Positions 4,203-45,770 of a stretch of DNA of 64,000 nt are shown piece after piece. Position 1 is the stretch's first letter, and every line of letters begins with the position of its first letter. Under the pieces are notes generated by a model. It had not been told where the DNA came from. It searched no databases and saw only the letters and a list, made by a program, of their open reading frames with translations. This DNA comes from Candidatus Obscuribacteraceae bacterium. GTDB lineage: Bacteria; Cyanobacteriota; Vampirovibrionia; Obscuribacterales; Obscuribacteraceae. The stretch spans positions 160,001 through 224,000 of the forward strand of contig JBGASG010000006.1 of the NCBI GenBank assembly GCA_044229845.1, read 5' to 3'. Position numbers and translations under genes: made by a program.

Positions 4203-4585
4203 TGGTGGAGGCGGCGAGAATCGCACTCGCGTCCAAAACTGCCGAGAATCCGGTCACTACAGGTTTAGTCTCGAATTTCTCCAGTACAGCTGAAGCGGCC
4301 GAGACGGCCACCCTGGTTCGCAATTATGTCTTAGCCACAGCTATTAACAGCTAACTTTGCCGTGGAGCGGCCACCGTGGTTTGCAGTTACCGTTAGCGGG
4401 TAGCCAAGCTAACGTGTAACTACCGCGCCTAAGAGTTAGTTAGGCAGCAACAGCGTAGCTGTTGGCGGTGAATGCCATTGCATTGTTTTTGGCATTTGTT
4501 TGTTTTGTCCAGTGTTTTAAGAGGTGCCAGACTACCTCTACCTGCGACCTGAAACCCTACAATCCTGTCGAATCTAAACGCCCCC
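4203..4585 (-). ncRNA. ssrA: tmRNA
   Basis: 5' GGGGGCGTTTAGATTCGAC; 3' GCGAGTGCGATTCTCGCCGCCTCCACCA; acceptor stem GGGGGCG/CGCCTCC with G3:U; tag ORF 4493-4440 encodes AKNNAMAFTANSYAVAA*. Confidence 0.95.
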
Positions 4586-30333: not shown

Positions 30334-30432
30334 CTACACAAGGAGCCCGCACCTCGGAGACGCAATAAGTACCAGAATTACAATAATTCCGGCAAAAGCG
30401 TTGAGGATAAGGAGACCTTGGTTGGCTTGCAT
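30334..30432 (-). CDS. ilvL: ilv operon leader peptide (32 aa) MQANQGLLILNAFAGIIVILVLIASPRCGLLV
   Basis: Ile/Leu/Val-rich uORF. Its 3' part (gaggtgcgggct) is complementary to the terminator 5' arm and can act as antiterminator. Confidence 0.85.
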   Translation of the reverse strand: MQANQGLLILNAFAGIIVILVLIASPRCGLLV

Positions 30433-32235: not shown

Positions 32236-32325
32236 CTAATTCTCCAGGCTAAGCAGAAGCGCCCCGCCGTTAAGCAGGAGGCTAAGCGCGCCGAGGAGAA
32301 GTTGAAACTGTGTCATTGATTGCAT
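32236..32325 (-). CDS. leuL: leu leader peptide (29 aa) MQSMTQFQLLLGALSLLLNGGALLLSLEN
   Basis: 11 Leu codons; aaacagagtc just after the stop can pair with the terminator 5' arm. Confidence 0.85.
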   Translation of the reverse strand: MQSMTQFQLLLGALSLLLNGGALLLSLEN

Positions 32326-38133: not shown

Positions 38134-38928
38134 CTAGGCGGTGCGAGCGATTTCGGCGTCGGCGCAAATTAGAGTTCCCGGGTGTCCGGGATTGAACGTG
38201 TTGCGCACGCGAATCTGGACACCGTGCTGCTTAGCCAGCGTCACGGAGCGATCATGAATTACCTGCGCGCCCGCGCGGGCCATTTCGAAGCAGTGGTCGT
38301 AGCCTATCTCGGGAATCAAGACGGCGCCGGCAACTTTGTTGGGGTCGGCGGTAAAAACTCCGTCGACATCGGTAAAGATGTGGCAGACGCCCGCGCCGAC
38401 CGCGGCGGCCAGCGCCACGGCGGACGTGTCCGACCCGCCGCGCCCCAGGGTCGTGATGTCACCGTCGACGGTGCTGCCCTGGAATCCGGCGACGACGATC
38501 ACGTCATTGTCTTGCAGTTCTTCCAGGATGTGCGGAGCATCGACGGTGAGGATGCGGGCACAGCCGTGTTCGGCTTCAGTGAGCACACCAATCTGCTGAC
38601 CGGTAAATGATTTGGCGCGCACGCCGCAGGACTTGAGAATCATGGTCAAAAGCGCGATCGAGACTTGCTCTCCGGTGGACAACAGAACATCCAGCTCGCG
38701 CTTATCCGGCTGCTCCGCACAGCGCAGCGCCAACTGATACAGATGATCCGTGGTATCACCCATCGCCGACACGACGACGATGGTTTTCTGTTGCTTCGAG
38801 AACGATTGCACGATCTGGGCAACGTTCTGCATTCTGCCGATGCCGCGCACCGACGTGCCTCCAAATTTGAGCACGGCGATGCTTTGAATATTGGTCTGAT
38901 TGTTTACCCGCAGGTTAACAGCGCACAT
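38134..38928 (-). CDS. lysC: aspartate kinase, catalytic domain only (no ACT domains)
   Basis: KFGGTSV, VVVSAMGDTTD, TLGRGGSDTSA, TDVDGVFTADP; ends right after PGTLI; GGAGG RBS. Confidence 0.88.
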   Translation of the reverse strand: MCAVNLRVNNQTNIQSIAVLKFGGTSVRGIGRMQNVAQIVQSFSKQQKTIVVVSAMGDTTDHLYQLALRCAEQPDKRELDVLLSTGEQVSIALLTMILKSCGVRAKSFTGQQIGVLTEAEHGCARILTVDAPHILEELQDNDVIVVAGFQGSTVDGDITTLGRGGSDTSAVALAAAVGAGVCHIFTDVDGVFTADPNKVAGAVLIPEIGYDHCFEMARAGAQVIHDRSVTLAKQHGVQIRVRNTFNPGHPGTLICADAEIARTA

Positions 38929-38973
38929 ATTTCCTCCAATCAAGGTATTGCTTAATCTCGTGTCGATCCAAAT

Positions 38974-40275
38974 CTATTTGGCGGGCGATGCCGCCAGTTC
39001 TCTTTGTTGTTCTTGTTGTTCTTGCTGCTTTTGCTGCCGCTCCTTGCCGCCGGAGACAGTGCCGGCAGCCACAGCCGGTAGGGCTTGCGCCAGGTCAGCG
39101 ATCAAGTCACGCGCGTCTTCGATGCCGCAGGACAATCTGATCAAACCATCGGTGATACCACACTGTTCCTGCACGTCTTTCGGTATCGGCTTGTGCGTCA
39201 TCGTGGAGGGATGACAAATCAACGACTTGACGCCACCGAGGGATTCGGCGAGCTGGAACAAACGAGTCGACCGCACCAGATGCTTAGCATTGTCCAGTCC
39301 GCCTTTGACGACAAAAGAAACCATGCCGCCGAAACCAGTCATCTGGCGCTTGGCCAGTTCGTATTGCGGGAACGAGGGGAGTCCCGGGTAGAAAACCTGT
39401 TCTACTGCCGGATGTTGTTCGAGAAAGTTGGCGACTTCCGTGGCGTTGCGCTCGTGTTCTCTCATGCGCAGGGAGAGGGTCTTCACGCCGCGCAAAGTCA
39501 GGTAGCAGTCGAATGGACCGGGAACGCAACCGGATGCATTCGTGTAAAACTGCAATTGCTCGTAGAGATCCTCGCGATCCGTGATCACGGCACCGCCGAT
39601 GACATCGGCGTGTCCGCTCAGATATTTGGTTGTACTGTGAACTATGACGTCGGCGCCGAACTCCAGTGGACGCTGGAAATATGGTGTCGCAAAAGTGTTA
39701 TCGACGCAGTAGATCAAATTGTGGCGCTTGGCGATTTTGCCGATTTCGCGCAAATCCGCAAGCCGGAGCAGGGGATTCGTCGGCGTCTCCAACCAGATCA
39801 ACTTGGTCTGGCTACACACCGCGTTTTCAATCTGTTGAACATCGCGGGCGTTTACATACGAAAAACTGAGATTGTAGCGTTTGAGGACCTTTTCGAAGAG
39901 GCGGTAGACGCCGCCATATACGTCTTCGCCGACAACCACGTGATCGCCTGCATTGAGCAGGCTGGCAACCACTGTCACAGCCGCTAAGCCGGAGGCGGTG
40001 GCGATGCCGTAGCGAGCGCCTTCGAGCGAAGCCAGGCATTCTTCAAGCGCAGTACGCGTCGGATTGTGCGTACGGGCATATTGGTACCCTTTGTTGACGC
40101 CCAGCTCATCGAGCGCGAATGTCGAAGTCTGGTATATCGGAGTAGTGAGGGCGCCGGTGGCGGGGTCTGGTTCCTGCCCGTGATGTACGGCTCTGGTGGC
40201 GAATGCCAGGGTCGAGGTGAACTCGCGTTGCGCTTTGGTCTTCTCGCAGCCGTTGTGAGTGGGATGTACGGTCAT
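38974..40275 (-). CDS. metB: cystathionine gamma-synthase/lyase (PLP trans-sulfuration enzyme)
   Basis: PIYQTSTF, YARTHNPTR, WLETPTNP, DNTFATP, HSTTKYLSGH, AESLGG; AGGAG RBS. Confidence 0.88.
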   Translation of the reverse strand: MTVHPTHNGCEKTKAQREFTSTLAFATRAVHHGQEPDPATGALTTPIYQTSTFALDELGVNKGYQYARTHNPTRTALEECLASLEGARYGIATASGLAAVTVVASLLNAGDHVVVGEDVYGGVYRLFEKVLKRYNLSFSYVNARDVQQIENAVCSQTKLIWLETPTNPLLRLADLREIGKIAKRHNLIYCVDNTFATPYFQRPLEFGADVIVHSTTKYLSGHADVIGGAVITDREDLYEQLQFYTNASGCVPGPFDCYLTLRGVKTLSLRMREHERNATEVANFLEQHPAVEQVFYPGLPSFPQYELAKRQMTGFGGMVSFVVKGGLDNAKHLVRSTRLFQLAESLGGVKSLICHPSTMTHKPIPKDVQEQCGITDGLIRLSCGIEDARDLIADLAQALPAVAAGTVSGGKERQQKQQEQQEQQRELAASPAK

Positions 40276-40301
40276 GGTGATGTTTCTCCTTTCAATAATT
40301 G

Positions 40302-40342
40302 CCAAAAGAAAACTCCCCTTCTCTGCCGCGAGAAGGGGAGTT
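40302..40342 (-). terminator. attenuator terminator upstream of metB
   Basis: 13-bp perfect stem aactccccttctc/gagaaggggagtt, followed on the minus strand by ttcttttgg. Confidence 0.85.
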
Positions 40343-40367
40343 AATTGCACTTTCTAAGCTTGCTGAG

Positions 40368-40463
40368 TTAATCGAGCCAGACGATGTGCAAACACCCTAC
40401 TTCCCCGGCGGGGTAGTAGCGCATGTTCATGCTCATCATCATAGTTGTGGCGCGATTCGACAT
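40368..40463 (-). CDS. putative Met leader peptide (31 aa) MSNRATTMMMSMNMRYYPAGEVGCLHIVWLD
   Basis: Five internal Met codons within 7 positions; lies between a consensus promoter and the terminator before metB. Confidence 0.78.
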   Translation of the reverse strand: MSNRATTMMMSMNMRYYPAGEVGCLHIVWLD

Positions 40464-40470
40464 GTGCCCC

Positions 40471-40498
40471 ATGATAGCGGCAAAAATTGCGCTGTCAA
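40471..40498 (-). promoter_or_regulatory. sigma70 promoter of the Met leader-metB operon
   Basis: TTGACA-16-TATCAT, 7 nt before the leader ATG. Confidence 0.75.
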
Positions 40499-40639
40499 TC
40501 CTTGCGCCGCGCTCTGTAAAGTTGCGCCACGCGAGCCTCTATAGAACTAGATTACATAGATCAATATGTGAACGCGCGCCAGCGTTCTTCTGAGATCCGA
40601 TTCAGAATCTGATCTGCCGATGCGCTTGTGCCGGGCAAT

Positions 40640-41800
40640 TCAAACCAGCTTGATCAGCGGTGGCGAAACATAATTCCGGATGTCGTCCTTTGATATCGCA
40701 TCCGCTGCGACGCACATCGCAAGGAAAGCTCCCTGCGGCCACCGCACCAGATCTGCCAGATGGGAAAACACACAGACATACTGTTGCAAATACTTTCTGC
40801 TCACCCCTTGAAACACATCGATGATGAACGCAGCGACTTGTTGAACTTTCTCGCTCAAGACATCCGACGAGGTTCCGCGGACGGCATCCGCAGCGCGGAC
40901 CGAACCGGTATCAGCGCCGTCGACGTCACGTTCCCCGGTTCGATTTGCCAACACGAAGCGCTCTCCCGGAAGTCTCAACGCAAGTCCATTCAACTCAAGC
41001 ATCACCAAACTCGACGTCAACTCTCCGAATTCCAAACCAGTCTGCTCTCGCAGCAAGTCAATGAAGATCGGCTGCTCACCCAAATGTTGAAGCACTTGGT
41101 GCTCGACCTCGTCGAGGTGCGCTCCGTCAACGCCCGCATCTCGAGTAGTTGCCTCCCCCTGAGCGGTCCCCTCATCTCGAGTAGTTGCCTCCCTTTGAGC
41201 GGTCACCTCATCTCGAGTGGTTGCCTCCCCTTGAGCGGTCCCCTCATCCCGAGTAGTCGCTTCTCTCCAATCAACATTGTGTTCCTCAGAAGCAGGACTC
41301 TGGCGGGCCTCCGTTTCTCGGCTGCGTCGAGTGACGACTTTCATCCACCTGGATGAAGGGACTTCATCCCCAGCGTCAGTTTCGGAAACCGAATTCGTGA
41401 GCACCATCGCGAGCTTCAGAAACATCGTCCATGCAGTCGAATAGGCGACTCCCGTAACCTTAGAGAATCTGCTCGGATTAACCTCAATTCGATGGTCAAT
41501 CAGCCAAACGGCAAACAGCCATTCGCGCACGAGCCTGATGTTCTCAAAGAACGTGCCCGAAGTCAGGTGCATCTTCTCATTGCATTCGGAGCATTGAACG
41601 GTTCGATCATTCACGCGAATCCAATTGCTGTTAGGACATCCCTTTCTGCAAGTGCGATTGGAGCTCGATGTCGCGCAAAGCGCATCTACACAATCAGCAT
41701 CGGTCGGAAACTCAGCATTGAATTGTTCCATTTCATGGAACAGCGGATCTGTGTCATTTTCAGAGGGTCGTCGATCTGGGTTCTTAGCTTGATTTTTCAT
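40640..41800 (-). CDS. IS1595-transposase-derived protein (Zn ribbon, HTH, DprA-like winged helix, no recognisable DDE core)
   Basis: EFPTDADC...CRKGC...CSEC...LTSGTFFE; GVAYSTAW; IDLL.EQTGL...LVMLELNG...LPG; FQGVSRKYLQQY. Confidence 0.65.
   Translation of the reverse strand: MKNQAKNPDRRPSENDTDPLFHEMEQFNAEFPTDADCVDALCATSSSNRTCRKGCPNSNWIRVNDRTVQCSECNEKMHLTSGTFFENIRLVREWLFAVWLIDHRIEVNPSRFSKVTGVAYSTAWTMFLKLAMVLTNSVSETDAGDEVPSSRWMKVVTRRSRETEARQSPASEEHNVDWREATTRDEGTAQGEATTRDEVTAQREATTRDEGTAQGEATTRDAGVDGAHLDEVEHQVLQHLGEQPIFIDLLREQTGLEFGELTSSLVMLELNGLALRLPGERFVLANRTGERDVDGADTGSVRAADAVRGTSSDVLSEKVQQVAAFIIDVFQGVSRKYLQQYVCVFSHLADLVRWPQGAFLAMCVAADAISKDDIRNYVSPPLIKLV
41137..41260. repeat. in-frame 36-bp tandem repeat (~3.5x, EATTRDEGTAQG)
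   Basis: catctcgagtagttgcctccccctgagcggtcccct units. Confidence 0.85.
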
Positions 41801-41885
41801 GGCAGAAACCTCCATTACGATCAACGTCGCTCGCACCCAAAAAGTTCAATTCGCCAGATAAAACTGACAACCCCCCCTCTCAAGC

Positions 41886-42012: not shown

Positions 42013-42654
42013 TCAGGGAGCCTCGGCTAGTCCCCACCGCTTGAGGACCGCGTAAGCGGCTGGTAGTGAAGCGCCGAATGACAGGATGCCGTCTTCGTGC
42101 CCGGCCATAACAAGGATGCATTGGTGTGACAGGTCGGCTTGGCGGGCAAGCCGTTGCACCTCCGCCGCCATCTCGGGAGTTCCATAGGGGACATGCGGGG
42201 CGGTCGTCGGAACCCTTCCTAAAAGGCGCTGCCAGTGGGTGTTGCTGTGTACATGGATCACCGCACTGCTCTGCGGAAACGTTTCATATATGATTGCGTG
42301 CGTCATGGATTCAGATGAAGCCTTCATCGGTCCGAAACAGCTGATAGAGTTTCTTTGCAGATCGAATGAGGTGACGAGGGCGAAGTGCTGTTCGTCCGCG
42401 CTAGAGATATGTCCCGTTTGGCTAGCTGAAATCAAGAACTGCGGCTGGCTTTGGGGTGGCTGGACCTGGGGTGTCCGAGAATCAGCCACTCGGACGCTGA
42501 TGTTTCCGAAACCGATGCCATCCGGATAGACTCCGATCAACCCGTCGCGATAGAGCTGGTTACGAAAGTCGAAGAGATCGGACGATTTCGCGTACTCGGG
42601 CAACGGGCCTGGTGTCCAAGCACATTCGAACTTGATTACGCCTTCGTCTCTCAT
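42013..42654 (-). CDS. class II aldolase/adducin family protein (MtnB-like)
   Basis: GFGNISVR, ASSESMTH, AVIHVHS, YGTPEMA, MAGHEDG. Confidence 0.8.
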   Translation of the reverse strand: MRDEGVIKFECAWTPGPLPEYAKSSDLFDFRNQLYRDGLIGVYPDGIGFGNISVRVADSRTPQVQPPQSQPQFLISASQTGHISSADEQHFALVTSFDLQRNSISCFGPMKASSESMTHAIIYETFPQSSAVIHVHSNTHWQRLLGRVPTTAPHVPYGTPEMAAEVQRLARQADLSHQCILVMAGHEDGILSFGASLPAAYAVLKRWGLAEAP

Positions 42655-42719: not shown

Positions 42720-44552
42720 ATGCTGGTGGTTGAGACACTAACTTTAGCAGCAACGGTTGGCGCTTTGATAGGCGCCGGATGTTACTGCTTTCGCCGTTGT
42801 CCTCCCGACAGAGTTCTGGTAGTGCGAAGTCGCACGAAGGCTGGAGCAGCCGGTGCCGCAAAAAATACCGGCAGTTTCAGAGTTACGCGTGGAGAGATCT
42901 GGATTAACCCGCTCACCGAGGCGGTGCAGGAAGTCAATCTGTCCCCGCTGGAGATCTACGTCGCGGTATCGCTGCCCTCGTCTGCCATCAATGTAGAACG
43001 CCTCTATATTCATTTGAAGGTAGTTACGGCGCCCAGCCCGGACGACGACTCGCTCGCTCGGGCGGCGGGGCACATAGGCGGCCTGGATGTACACCGTGCA
43101 TCTCGCAAGTTAGAGGAGTTGATTGCGGCGAAAAATCCGGAACTGCCACTGTCACTGGTGCCGCAATCGGCTGTGGATCTACAGAGTTTGAGTTTGCGCG
43201 GACGTCCGGAATGGAACGAATGGCTGCTGTCGCTCCTCAAACCCTACGGGATGGAATTGAAATCCTACAGTCTGCTGGAAGTATCTCGACGCACTGAGTT
43301 GCAACCGACTCCGCGGTCCCAGGAACCGGACGTTTCGCGCGCCTGCCGCCTTTTGGAATTCGACCCCGTATGCGAGGAGGTGCAGGTCGAGATTGCAGCC
43401 AGCCAGACTCAATTGGGTGCAGTCGGTATCACGTGGCTTTTGATGTTCAACGTGGAACCACAATTCGACCTATACCGGGTGGCGTGTGAAAACTATCTGG
43501 ACAAGCCGGCGCCGGAGGTTAACTCTCATTTGAGCGGCATCGTGTCCCAGGCAATGCATCGCGCACTCTCGACCTGCAATGGCTACACGATGATCGATCA
43601 GCTCTGCGAATCATATAAGAAGTATGGTGGTGACTCGGGCAAAAGCTCCGGTAAAGAGTTGGCTATCTATATGTTGAACGCTGTTTCCGACGCGGTCAGC
43701 ACCTGGCGCGGCAAATTGATGATGATGCGAGCCTGGTTCACGTCAGCGAATACAGCTCAGAAGTTCTTCACGACTCTTGTGCAATCGTTAGAGGTTGAAC
43801 TCAGTCGGTCTGGTTTGAAGTTCGGTGGGTTGCTTTTCAAAGATGTCGACCTGCAGACATCGACAATTCAATTGCCCACAAAGTGGAACTACACATCCTC
43901 GTTTGTGCCGACCGACGTCATTCAGTTTTCGGGACGAACTCCAATCGTCTTCGAGGGGCGACCACTGACTGCCGTAATCTGGGCGCGCGTGGAAATGCCC
44001 AGGCTGAAAGCCATCGGCGTTGCATCGGGCGGTGCTGCATCGGGCGGTGCTGCATCGGGCGGTGCTGCATCGGACGGTGCTGCATCGGACGGTGCTGCAT
44101 CGGACGGCGTTGCATTGGAGGGTGCCAGCGTTTCGGAGACGACGGTATCTGGTGCCCTTTCCCATCAACTGACGAAGGCACTGGCGACTCCCAAGGTCCA
44201 GAAGTTGGTGATCGCCGCCGAGCGACTTTGGGCAGAACTGAAACGCGACATGGACGAGCTACGCGGCGTCGACGGCACACTGGAAGATCCGGTCACCAGA
44301 CTGATCATCGAACGCGCGGCGCTGCGTTTAGTTCTGCCGGCAGCCAAAGTGGTGCTGGCACTACTGGATGCCTACGCCGAGGTGCGCCGCGAGTTTATCA
44401 AAAACTGCTCGCGAGCAGTGAACGAAACCGGCGGCGTCGGTGAGAACTTCGCTCTGCGCGACTTCGACATTGTCGACCACAAAGGCAATACGATACTTAC
44501 AGCGCCAGAGCAGTCCGTTCAGGAAACAGCTGCAATAGCCCTTCCTCGTTAG
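42720..44552 (+). CDS. membrane-anchored protein with divergent SPFH/flotillin-like regions
   Basis: N-terminal TM plus RRCPPDRVLV...WINPL.EAVQEVNLSPLEI; internal 15-bp GGAAS repeats. Confidence 0.5.
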   Translation: MLVVETLTLAATVGALIGAGCYCFRRCPPDRVLVVRSRTKAGAAGAAKNTGSFRVTRGEIWINPLTEAVQEVNLSPLEIYVAVSLPSSAINVERLYIHLKVVTAPSPDDDSLARAAGHIGGLDVHRASRKLEELIAAKNPELPLSLVPQSAVDLQSLSLRGRPEWNEWLLSLLKPYGMELKSYSLLEVSRRTELQPTPRSQEPDVSRACRLLEFDPVCEEVQVEIAASQTQLGAVGITWLLMFNVEPQFDLYRVACENYLDKPAPEVNSHLSGIVSQAMHRALSTCNGYTMIDQLCESYKKYGGDSGKSSGKELAIYMLNAVSDAVSTWRGKLMMMRAWFTSANTAQKFFTTLVQSLEVELSRSGLKFGGLLFKDVDLQTSTIQLPTKWNYTSSFVPTDVIQFSGRTPIVFEGRPLTAVIWARVEMPRLKAIGVASGGAASGGAASGGAASDGAASDGAASDGVALEGASVSETTVSGALSHQLTKALATPKVQKLVIAAERLWAELKRDMDELRGVDGTLEDPVTRLIIERAALRLVLPAAKVVLALLDAYAEVRREFIKNCSRAVNETGGVGENFALRDFDIVDHKGNTILTAPEQSVQETAAIALPR

Positions 44553-45615
44553 CCGCGCAAATGCCGCGCTCGGTGATCAGCGCCGTAACCAGATGGCGCG
44601 GAGTGACATCAAATCCGAAGTTGGCGGCGGGAGCACTTTCAGGAGAGACCAGCACGGACTTTGTTTTACCGTCAGCGGCATCCAGTCCGGCAACATATTT
44701 GACTTCGTGAGCGCTGCGCTCCTCAATTGGAATCTCTCGACCGTCCACTATGTCCCAGTCGATGCTCGAAGACGGCAGTGCAACAAAGAACGGTATACCG
44801 TTTGCGTCAGCAGCCAGCGCCTTCAGATAAGTGCCGATTTTGTTGGCGACATCGCCACCGCGCGTAGTGCGATCGGTTCCGACAATTACCATGTCTACCA
44901 TGCCGTTTTGCATGAGATGACCGCCGGCATTGTCCGTGATCAGTGTATAGGGAACGCCGTGTTGCCCCAATTCCCAGGCGGTCAGTGCGGCTCCCTGATT
45001 GCGCGGACGCGTTTCATCCACCCAGACGTGAATTGGAATCCCAGCATCGAAGGCTTGATAAATCACCGAGGTGGCGGTGCCCCAGTCGGTGGTAGCCAGC
45101 CACCCGGCATTGCAATGCGTAAGCACTTGCACGGGCTTGCCCTGTTTCTGCTGCGCCAGATCGCGCACCAGCTGCAGCCCGTGCACACCGATCATGCGGC
45201 AGATTTCCACGTCGGCGGCAGCCAGTTGCTGCGCGTTTTCCAGCAAGAGCTGAACGGCATGCTGTTTCGATCTTGCCGCTTCCAGTTGTTTGATTTGCTC
45301 GTCAACCGCCCAGGCTAGATTGACAGCGGTCGGCCGAGCATTCCGCAACTCGGCAGCCGCAGATTGCAAGTAGCTCTTGAAGTTATCCTCGGGCGACTGA
45401 TGTGCGGCGAGATACATACCGAAAGCCGCGCACACGCCAATCAAGGGCGCACCGCGAACGGCCATGTCTGCGATGGCGTCGCGCATTTCTTCATAGCCGG
45501 CCAGCGCCAGCACTTTGAATTCGTGCGGCAACACGCGCTGATCGATGACGCAGACCTGACTGGCGTCCGACTCATTCAACCAGACCGATTGATAGCGCTT
45601 GCCTTCTACTTTCAT
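44497..45615 (-). CDS. mtnA: S-methyl-5-thioribose-1-phosphate isomerase
   Basis: VRGAPLIG, RPTAVNL, LTHCNAGWLAT, DETRPRNQGA, NKIGTY, FDVTP. Confidence 0.95.
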   Translation of the reverse strand: MKVEGKRYQSVWLNESDASQVCVIDQRVLPHEFKVLALAGYEEMRDAIADMAVRGAPLIGVCAAFGMYLAAHQSPEDNFKSYLQSAAAELRNARPTAVNLAWAVDEQIKQLEAARSKQHAVQLLLENAQQLAAADVEICRMIGVHGLQLVRDLAQQKQGKPVQVLTHCNAGWLATTDWGTATSVIYQAFDAGIPIHVWVDETRPRNQGAALTAWELGQHGVPYTLITDNAGGHLMQNGMVDMVIVGTDRTTRGGDVANKIGTYLKALAADANGIPFFVALPSSSIDWDIVDGREIPIEERSAHEVKYVAGLDAADGKTKSVLVSPESAPAANFGFDVTPRHLVTALITERGICAANEEGLLQLFPERTALAL

Positions 45616-45770
45616 GCGGCACCTCGGCCTCAAGTGTAGCAGCACAAGTCAGGCAGGAACCGCGTTCACCGCACGCATTTGATTAGCGATGTTAATGAAT
45701 TATGTAATTCGGTCGCATTTTGGAACGAGCAGTCCAGAATATTGATTCGAATCAGTGTAGGGAAACCAAA

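Follow-up and report, generated by a model that had tools for sequence, protein, structure and literature searches.

The 'metB'-aspartokinase operon of Candidatus Obscuribacteraceae bacterium (GenBank assembly GCA_044229845.1, hereafter G000) is very probably controlled by a classical ribosome-mediated transcription attenuator, the metB leader, in which translation of a short methionine (Met)-containing open reading frame (ORF) would sense Met-tRNA; sequence comparison and folding models both point to this reading. The analysis centered on a window of 64,000 nt on contig JBGASG010000006.1, and all positions given without a locus name are those of the window. We infer that the operon belongs to Met synthesis. 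The elements of the leader are as follows.

40493-40498, minus strand: −35 box TTGACA; a TTGAC-like hexamer lies at the same spacing in most orthologues and is divergent in some
40471-40476, minus strand: −10 box TATCAT, behind a 16-nt spacer; predicted start site at or beside the leader ATG
40368-40463, minus strand: leader ORF of 31 codons, probably leaderless, kept as an ORF of 22 to 34 codons in 57 of 57 orthologous loci
40422-40442, minus strand: putative sensor codons Met 8, 9, 10, 12, and 14 (first bases 40442, 40439, 40436, 40430, and 40424)
40410-40419, minus strand: segment 1, 5' arm of the protector hairpin 1:2; matching columns 83.8% paired, weak covariation
40386-40406, minus strand: segment 2, a G-rich stretch (40406-40393) plus a distal arm (40392-40386); partner is segment 1 or segment 3
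40330-40350, minus strand: segment 3, the distal partner (40350-40345) plus the terminator 5' arm (40342-40330)
40304-40323, minus strand: segment 4, the terminator 3' arm (40323-40311) plus the U-tract (40310-40304); two-sided changes in 9 of 10 pairs across 36 leaders
40286-40291, minus strand: Shine-Dalgarno-like AAGGAG of metB, identified by sequence

The promoter TTGACA-16-TATCAT is of the sigma70 type and matches the consensus at 11 of 12 positions. The leader ATG at 40463 follows the −10 box by 7 nt, which puts the expected transcript start on or immediately beside the AUG; the ORF is thus probably leaderless and would need no Shine-Dalgarno site for ribosome loading. We discarded another in-frame ATG, at 40472, as a start codon: it shares bases with the −10 box and would be left out of the transcript. 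The encoded peptide is MSNRATTMMMSMNMRYYPAGEVGCLHIVWLD, with the stop codon at 40370-40368, and Met occupies five of codons 2 to 16, compared with 2.0% in the long ORFs of G000 (binomial p ~9e-6, calculated post hoc). Downstream, the protector hairpin 1:2 is predicted to span 40419-40397, and a distal antiterminator helix is predicted to join 40392-40386 to 40350-40345. The terminator is a 13-pair stem at 40342-40311 followed by TTCTTTT (−23.8 kcal/mol), beyond which lie AAGGAG and the metB ATG at 40275 on the minus strand. A sequence-only reading that preceded this analysis had described the promoter, the 7-nt gap, the 31-codon ORF, and the 13-bp stem with its U-tract ahead of the metB ribosome-binding site, and its coordinates for these elements proved right; the leaderless start is an addition to it.

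In the proposed mechanism, the transcript would start at the AUG and the ribosome would load without a Shine-Dalgarno site. When Met is plentiful, the ribosome would reach the stop codon at 40370 and cover segment 2, allowing the 3:4 terminator to form and RNA polymerase to release a leader RNA of ~160 nt. When Met-tRNA is scarce, the ribosome would wait at Met12 or Met14 and cover segment 1, leaving segment 2 free to capture the terminator 5' arm, with read-through into metB as the predicted outcome.

Conservation of the metB leader

The enzyme was searched in 41 relatives and in 104 Obscuribacteraceae genomes, 94 of which contain a match at E <=1e-120, and 94 loci, comprising the best-scoring copies and part of the second copies, were examined. 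A quick tree of 91 longer proteins placed 56 on one branch (99% support in the Shimodaira-Hasegawa-like approximate likelihood ratio test), and a 57th orthologous locus is truncated by its contig end. All 57 orthologous loci, drawn from 18 genera, have promoter-like boxes, a short gap, an ATG, a Met-containing ORF of 22 to 34 codons, and a terminator; 13 of these leaders escaped the first pattern and were recovered by eye and with a looser pattern. The ATG lies 6 nt (24 loci) or 7 nt (33 loci) past the −10 box, and a Shine-Dalgarno-like word occurs within the gap in 1 of the 57.

The number of internal Met codons among codons 2 to 20 is one in 1 locus, two in 5, three in 28, four in 11, five in 10, and six in 2, so that 51 of the 57 leaders carry at least three. 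In 24 representative leaders, Met accounts for 94 of the 360 residues at codons 2 to 16, against the 2.0% background. The 57 loci encode 43 distinct leader peptides, whose sequences diverge while the Met codons persist. In an alignment of 36 leaders (A2), the columns without variation fall in the −10 box (A24, T25, A27, and T28), in the start codon and further in-frame ATGs, and at a single G in segment 2. The distance from the Met run to segment 2 is narrow, 6 to 15 nt in the 47 of 57 loci where the purine run could be located. Conservation of the Met codons and of the upstream ORF, together with covariation of the stem, had been named beforehand as a check on the proposal, and all three were found.

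RNA folding and the predicted switch

The window leader folds more stably than 200 of 200 shuffled sequences (z −5.3). In the 36 leaders, 84.4% of terminator cells are paired and 38 two-sided changes occur, with a covariation score reached by 0 of 500 shuffles. The antiterminator was assessed without an alignment in 24 leaders, where the pairing of a leader's own segment 2 with its own segment 3 averages −21.1 kcal/mol, versus −17.5 kcal/mol for swapped partners (0 of 20000 permutations). When held in one fixed register, 73% of antiterminator cells are paired versus 49 to 66% when the register is slid, with 37 two-sided cells versus 19.9 in shuffles. RNAalifold recovered the terminator alone from alignment A2. 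Terminator covariation is strong, and support for the antiterminator is moderate.

To model the switch in the window leader, the transcript was folded as it stands before segment 4 exists, with a ribosome footprint reaching 9 nt past the A-site codon; the model is one of equilibrium and not of kinetics. The modeled antiterminator probability is 0 without a ribosome, 0.06 to 0.07 with the ribosome at Met8 to Met10, 0.57 at Met12, 0.77 at Met14, and 0 at codon 22 and beyond, up to the stop, placing the switch window at about codons 12 to 16. Footprints of 6 to 15 nt move this window, and Met14 stays on throughout. In the untranslated window leader, hairpins 1:2 and 3:4 are predicted to dominate, leading to termination. 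In the stalled-ribosome fold, the G-rich stretch past the Met run takes the terminator 5' arm as its partner, as had been supposed from the letters alone. The same ribosome-masked folding, also proposed at the outset as a check, gave the expected pattern across the 24 Met leaders: the modeled terminator-arm pairing exceeds 0.5 in 23 when the ribosome is stalled and falls below 0.5 in 23 when it is at the stop. The leader possesses four sequence-level features of a classical attenuator, namely, a cognate-codon ORF, an intrinsic terminator, an exclusive antiterminator, and, in silico, a switch governed by ribosome position.

Several observations weigh against this reading. A leader's own partner is the best one in only 2 of the 24 leaders and is among the top three in 12. 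The antiterminator columns are mixed, with the 73% pairing matched by 39 of 500 shuffles, the covariation score by 28 of 500, and the number of pairs with a two-sided change by 427 of 500; slips in alignment register probably contribute. Hairpin 1:2 shows little covariation in spite of its 83.8% paired cells (51 of 500 shuffles). A ribosome at Met8 to Met10 produces no switch in the window-leader model, and in 22 of the 24 Met leaders the naked RNA already adopts the antiterminator at equilibrium, indicating that not all leaders follow the same four-segment logic. In one genus, six loci (L006, L046, L051, L053, L065, and L069) have only one or two Met codons amid a Lys/Arg-rich run. Of 24 listed public runs, 8 were examined, all as contigs and 7 of them RNA; the RNA cover is sparse, with no callable ends and none over the Met codons. 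Finally, each leader was chosen as the Met-richest ORF behind its −10 box and the relatives are not independent, and the p-values are therefore overstated.

In the genus with the Lys/Arg-rich runs, the leader precedes metB and a full-length aspartokinase, and co-sensing of Met and Lys is possible there. One idea was that Met leaders default to the on state when no ribosome is present, as a safeguard against failed initiation; it was rejected, as the naked-RNA antiterminator is also predicted in 15 of 16 Leu leaders and is therefore not Met specific.

Specificity and codon identity

Among 37 nonorthologous loci, 3 have no usable upstream DNA; of the 34 that are informative, 33 contain no match to a promoter plus Met upstream ORF and 1 has an ORF with a single Met. 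Most of these loci hold a CBS-linked paralogue that lies directly behind a CBS-domain gene, and no such leader is present there. In G000, model R1 has one site, and no Met leader was apparent by eye in the 300 nt preceding either metH-family gene, metK, or hom.

The leaders of leuA share the promoter-to-ATG layout and carry Leu codons in 29 of 30 family loci. The filter for these leaders required Leu and left Met content unselected; Met makes up 12 of 804 residues in the leuA leaders versus 217 of 1572 in the metB leaders. At least four leaders in G000 follow a cognate codon logic: metB (Met), leuA (Leu), ilvD (Ile/Leu/Val), and aspartyl-tRNA synthetase (Asn/Asp). Of the 2089 terminator-like sites that a looser leader scan of G000 considered, at least 102 gave a candidate, and most of these were noise. 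The two conventional attenuators of the same design that had been noted elsewhere in the window, with starts at 32325 and 30432, do exist. A Leu-rich, probably leaderless leader at 32236-32325 (minus strand), with a terminator at 32208-32176, precedes leuA, and an Ile/Leu/Val-rich leader at 30334-30432 (minus strand) with a terminator precedes ilvD, with a longer distance to its promoter than the Met and Leu leaders have. Outside the window, an Asn/Asp-rich leader ORF with a terminator (L375, G000:C1:1013237, minus strand) lies directly behind a promoter-like site and before the gene for a nondiscriminating aspartyl-tRNA synthetase.

The leader ORF may be translated and gate the terminator in response to more than Met-tRNA, through nascent-peptide arrest, ribosome slowing, or co-sensing of Thr, Lys, or Asn as members of the aspartate family. 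Thr and Asn make up 37 and 32 of 360 leader residues, versus backgrounds of 5.4% and 3.4%, one genus combines a Lys/Arg-rich run with one or two Met codons, and related scaffolds without Met runs stand before ABC-2 transporters, where they resemble antibiotic-stalling leaders. However, only the ATG codons are (near-)invariant in the coding part, the peptides otherwise diverging into the 43 distinct forms; most Thr and Asn codons come before the switching window; and the codons track the downstream pathway, with Leu at leuA, Cys/Met at cysDN, and Asn/Asp at aspS. We consider such a broader signal unlikely and retain Met-tRNA as the probable one.

Searches for other regulators and RNA data

Met genes are commonly under S-adenosylmethionine (SAM) control. 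No Rfam family reached its gathering score in the window, except for transfer-messenger RNA (gene at 4203-4585, minus strand), or in 20 related loci, in agreement with the earlier remark that no riboswitch is visible. A riboswitch or T-box at the metB leader was rejected: at E <=10, the only matches were a terminator-shaped one to PyrG_leader (24.8 bits; cutoff, 65) and two chance ones. Searches of G000 (88% complete) yielded no SAM-I, T-box, or MetJ; SAM-I occurs in 1 of the 104 family genomes, at a contig end, and SAM classes other than SAM-I are excluded at the scanned loci only.

A metabolite riboswitch of a new kind (for SAM, for example) or a protein-bound antiterminator could in principle run the terminator, leaving the Met-rich ORF incidental or secondary. 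Such an arrangement would fit the common control of Met genes by SAM and the ability of the naked RNA to form the antiterminator in most relatives, and a novel aptamer would be missing from Rfam. Nevertheless, the invariant positions belong to the promoter and to in-frame ATGs and outline no ligand pocket, the open frame is kept in all 57 loci, and even the permissive Rfam threshold yielded little beyond one weak, terminator-only match. We therefore judge this explanation very improbable.

One RNA contig spans the terminator (40222-40385, depth 3.6), although it may be DNA. Taken as RNA, it would suit a constitutive small-protein or small-RNA gene with a leaky terminator, metB being expressed by read-through or from another promoter. 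Against this stand the partner-specific antiterminator complementarity and the spacing of 6 to 15 nt kept between the Met run and segment 2 (47 of 57 loci); moreover, the region 39800-41200, in which shuffles yield 0.7 promoter-like sites, has none other than TTGACA-16-TATCAT. A constitutive gene is scarcely credible, and ribosome-mediated attenuation remains the reading that we favor.

Regulated genes and the methionine pathway

Two genes follow the leader.

38974-40275, minus strand: 'metB', Cys/Met-metabolism pyridoxal phosphate (PLP)-dependent enzyme, 433 amino acids; PRK07811, 517.6 bits (cutoff, 513)
38134-38943, minus strand: aspartokinase, 269 amino acids, catalytic domain, no ACT domain

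The sequence-only reading named the regulated gene metB. The hidden Markov model score is above the cutoff, but the label itself is inferential: the CBS-linked paralogue scores 557 bits, and the model does not separate the two. 'metB' likely encodes cystathionine gamma-synthase, a biosynthetic role suggested by the Met leader and the neighboring aspartokinase. A methionine gamma-lyase appears unlikely, since a catabolic gene turned on at Met shortage would have the wrong sign and the neighbor is an aspartokinase. Leader codons can in this way suggest what unannotated genes do, in this case a probable biosynthetic role of 'metB' in a family in which neither MetA nor MetX was found: MetA was found in 0 of the 104 family genomes, and MetX gave weak partial matches only (<=27 bits), in 33 of them. 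MetE was not found in G000, which has two MetH-family genes. In plants, the substrate of cystathionine gamma-synthase is O-phosphohomoserine; by analogy, our guess is that 'MetB' may use the same substrate.

Short aspartokinases of ~240 to 295 amino acids recur in several branches of the family, most others having 400 to 475 amino acids, and the two longer relatives tested (413 to 423 amino acids) carry ACT domains. The sequences suggest repeated loss of feedback control in the short forms.

Methionine-salvage genes lie nearby at 42013-42654 and 44497-45645 (minus strand), with mtnA above its cutoff and a weak match to class II aldolase (mtnB-like). Upstream of the promoter, at 40640-41836 (minus strand), is a 398-amino-acid ORF whose product combines a Cys-rich N terminus and short repeats with a DprA winged-helix domain; L004 has a similar upstream gene.

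Wider occurrence of the scaffold

Model R1 matches 66 of the 104 family genomes and gave weak matches only, in 8 genomes, among 150 other genomes of the phylum. Twenty extra R1 sites were inspected. L192 and L193 are Met leaders directly before aspartokinase, and L194, L209, and L211 are Met-containing leaders before other copies of Cys/Met enzymes. At L122:3001-3230, the scaffold carries Cys or Cys/Met codons before cysD-cysN. Cys or Cys/Met scaffolds are also found at L197, L198, L199, L200, L201, L202, L203, and L207, where the targets are a protein of 155 to 200 amino acids without a Pfam match or a fatty-acid-desaturase-family gene beside an ATP-binding cassette (ABC) binding protein. L196 places Met, Cys, and His codons in the scaffold before a 600-amino-acid PLP-dependent decarboxylase. 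At L195, L204, L205, L206, L208, and L210, the scaffold has no amino acid run and precedes ABC-type transporter operons (ABC-2 by Pfam for L205); we regard these as candidate general ribosome-stalling attenuators. In another family of the same class, L249, L252, and L254 each have a leader ORF with 6 to 8 internal Met codons, followed by a terminator, ahead of a protein of 432 to 436 amino acids without a Pfam match, which hints at a Met-related target.

A pattern scan of the genome collection gave 63 matches, comprising ~30 Obscuribacteraceae metB leaders, 6 other plausible leaders, and the rest chance. The corresponding metagenome scan was mostly noise; 80 loci were examined among the matches listed, and 1 (L330) was convincing. 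The following leaders were identified by inspection only. Met-rich, probably leaderless ORFs with hairpins precede the methionyl-tRNA synthetase gene at L160:3001-3250 (plus strand; Anaerolineales record) and on the metagenome contig L330. Two tandem units of Met-rich leader plus terminator stand before metA in a Flexilinea record (L159:2600-3077, minus strand). Met-rich leaders with a Shine-Dalgarno site precede a Cys/Met enzyme and a cysK-type gene in clostridial records (L152 and L157), and a Peribacteria record (L108:3001-3190, plus strand) has a Met-rich leader and terminator before a 595-amino-acid protein without a Pfam match.

A broader picture can be proposed tentatively. Obscuribacteraceae may regulate their sulfur amino acid synthesis with neither SAM riboswitches nor MetJ, through a single leaderless scaffold retuned by codons: Met at 'metB'-lysC, Cys/Met at cysDN, a mixture of Met and Lys in one genus, and no cognate run at ABC-2 exporters. 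Combined with a 'MetB' acting on O-phosphohomoserine as in plants and an aspartokinase without a feedback domain, this would make the ribosome the main Met sensor, an outcome that we regard as possible but less likely than not.

Comparison with known systems

The classical attenuators of enterobacteria are trpL, hisL, leuL, thrL, pheL, and ilvL, whose mechanism is summarized in the accessible part of bioRxiv 10.1101/834739. The metB leader resembles them in its cognate codons before a biosynthetic operon, its segments 1 to 4, its intrinsic terminator, and the predicted read-through upon stalling. It differs in that the sensor amino acid also serves initiation, in that the ORF is probably leaderless, and in its occurrence in Obscuribacteraceae. 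Met is an awkward case for attenuation, as one amino acid both starts the sensor peptide and reads the sensor codons. SAM riboswitches, Met T-boxes, and MetJ also control Met genes, SAM-I and T-box by premature termination; at the metB leader there is no SAM or T-box match.

The closest counterpart in pathway is MetL of Campylobacter jejuni metBA, a 20-amino-acid peptide with three Met codons and a Shine-Dalgarno site, for which a short terminated RNA was seen by differential RNA sequencing and attenuation was proposed (PMC3847290, in excerpt). Its start codon was later seen by translation initiation site profiling, and a Met-rich small ORF before a D-Met transporter was added (PMC11955535, in excerpt). 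Like the metB leader, MetL places Met codons before a Met-biosynthesis operon, with termination/antitermination proposed. Unlike the metB leader, MetL comes without a helix model, covariation, or a Met-response test in the accessible portions of these two papers, which report it in three Campylobacter species only; homology of the two leaders is not expected.

Leaderless Met leaders have been predicted via transcript mapping in Deinococcus deserti (Deide_09379, before methionyl-tRNA synthetase; PMC4007540, in excerpt) and in Streptomyces lividans (metL before metNIQ, with no typical intrinsic terminator; PMC8079986, in excerpt). The metB leader is similar to both in its Met-linked target and probable leaderless start, whereas the target is a synthetase in Deinococcus and an importer in Streptomyces. 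The mycobacterial polycysteine small ORF Ms5788A is leaderless, responds to Cys via tRNA charging, acts by Shine-Dalgarno occlusion, and has been tested experimentally, according to the available text of bioRxiv 10.1101/834739. The metB leader, too, is predicted to read a sulfur amino acid through tRNA charging from a probably leaderless small ORF, but it has a conserved, covarying intrinsic terminator, and Ms5788A acts without one.

In the portions of PMC2965389 and PMC4239095 at hand, Met-leader terms retrieved no Met leader. Our literature search found no functional or Met-response test of a Met-codon attenuator, although additional Met cases may be recorded in older comparative-genomics work on attenuation, and no paper on attenuators of the Obscuribacteraceae lineage. 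The sequence-only reading had put forward a Met-sensing attenuator of an undescribed class. Its mechanism is backed, at the level of sequence and modeling, by the 57 loci, the terminator covariation, the masked folding, and the Rfam negatives; the claim of an undescribed class gives way to the precedents (PMC3847290, PMC4007540, and PMC8079986). Met sensing and leaderless starts have thus each already been printed as predictions, and the additions made here are a further lineage, comparative evidence for a complete switch, and the reuse of one scaffold with different codons. With Met leaders proposed in three genera, the 43 natural variants, with complete terminator and antiterminator, fit a 200-nt reporter and make the switch directly testable. 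Altogether, the comparison would add the Melainabacteria to the lineages that use leaderless attenuators.

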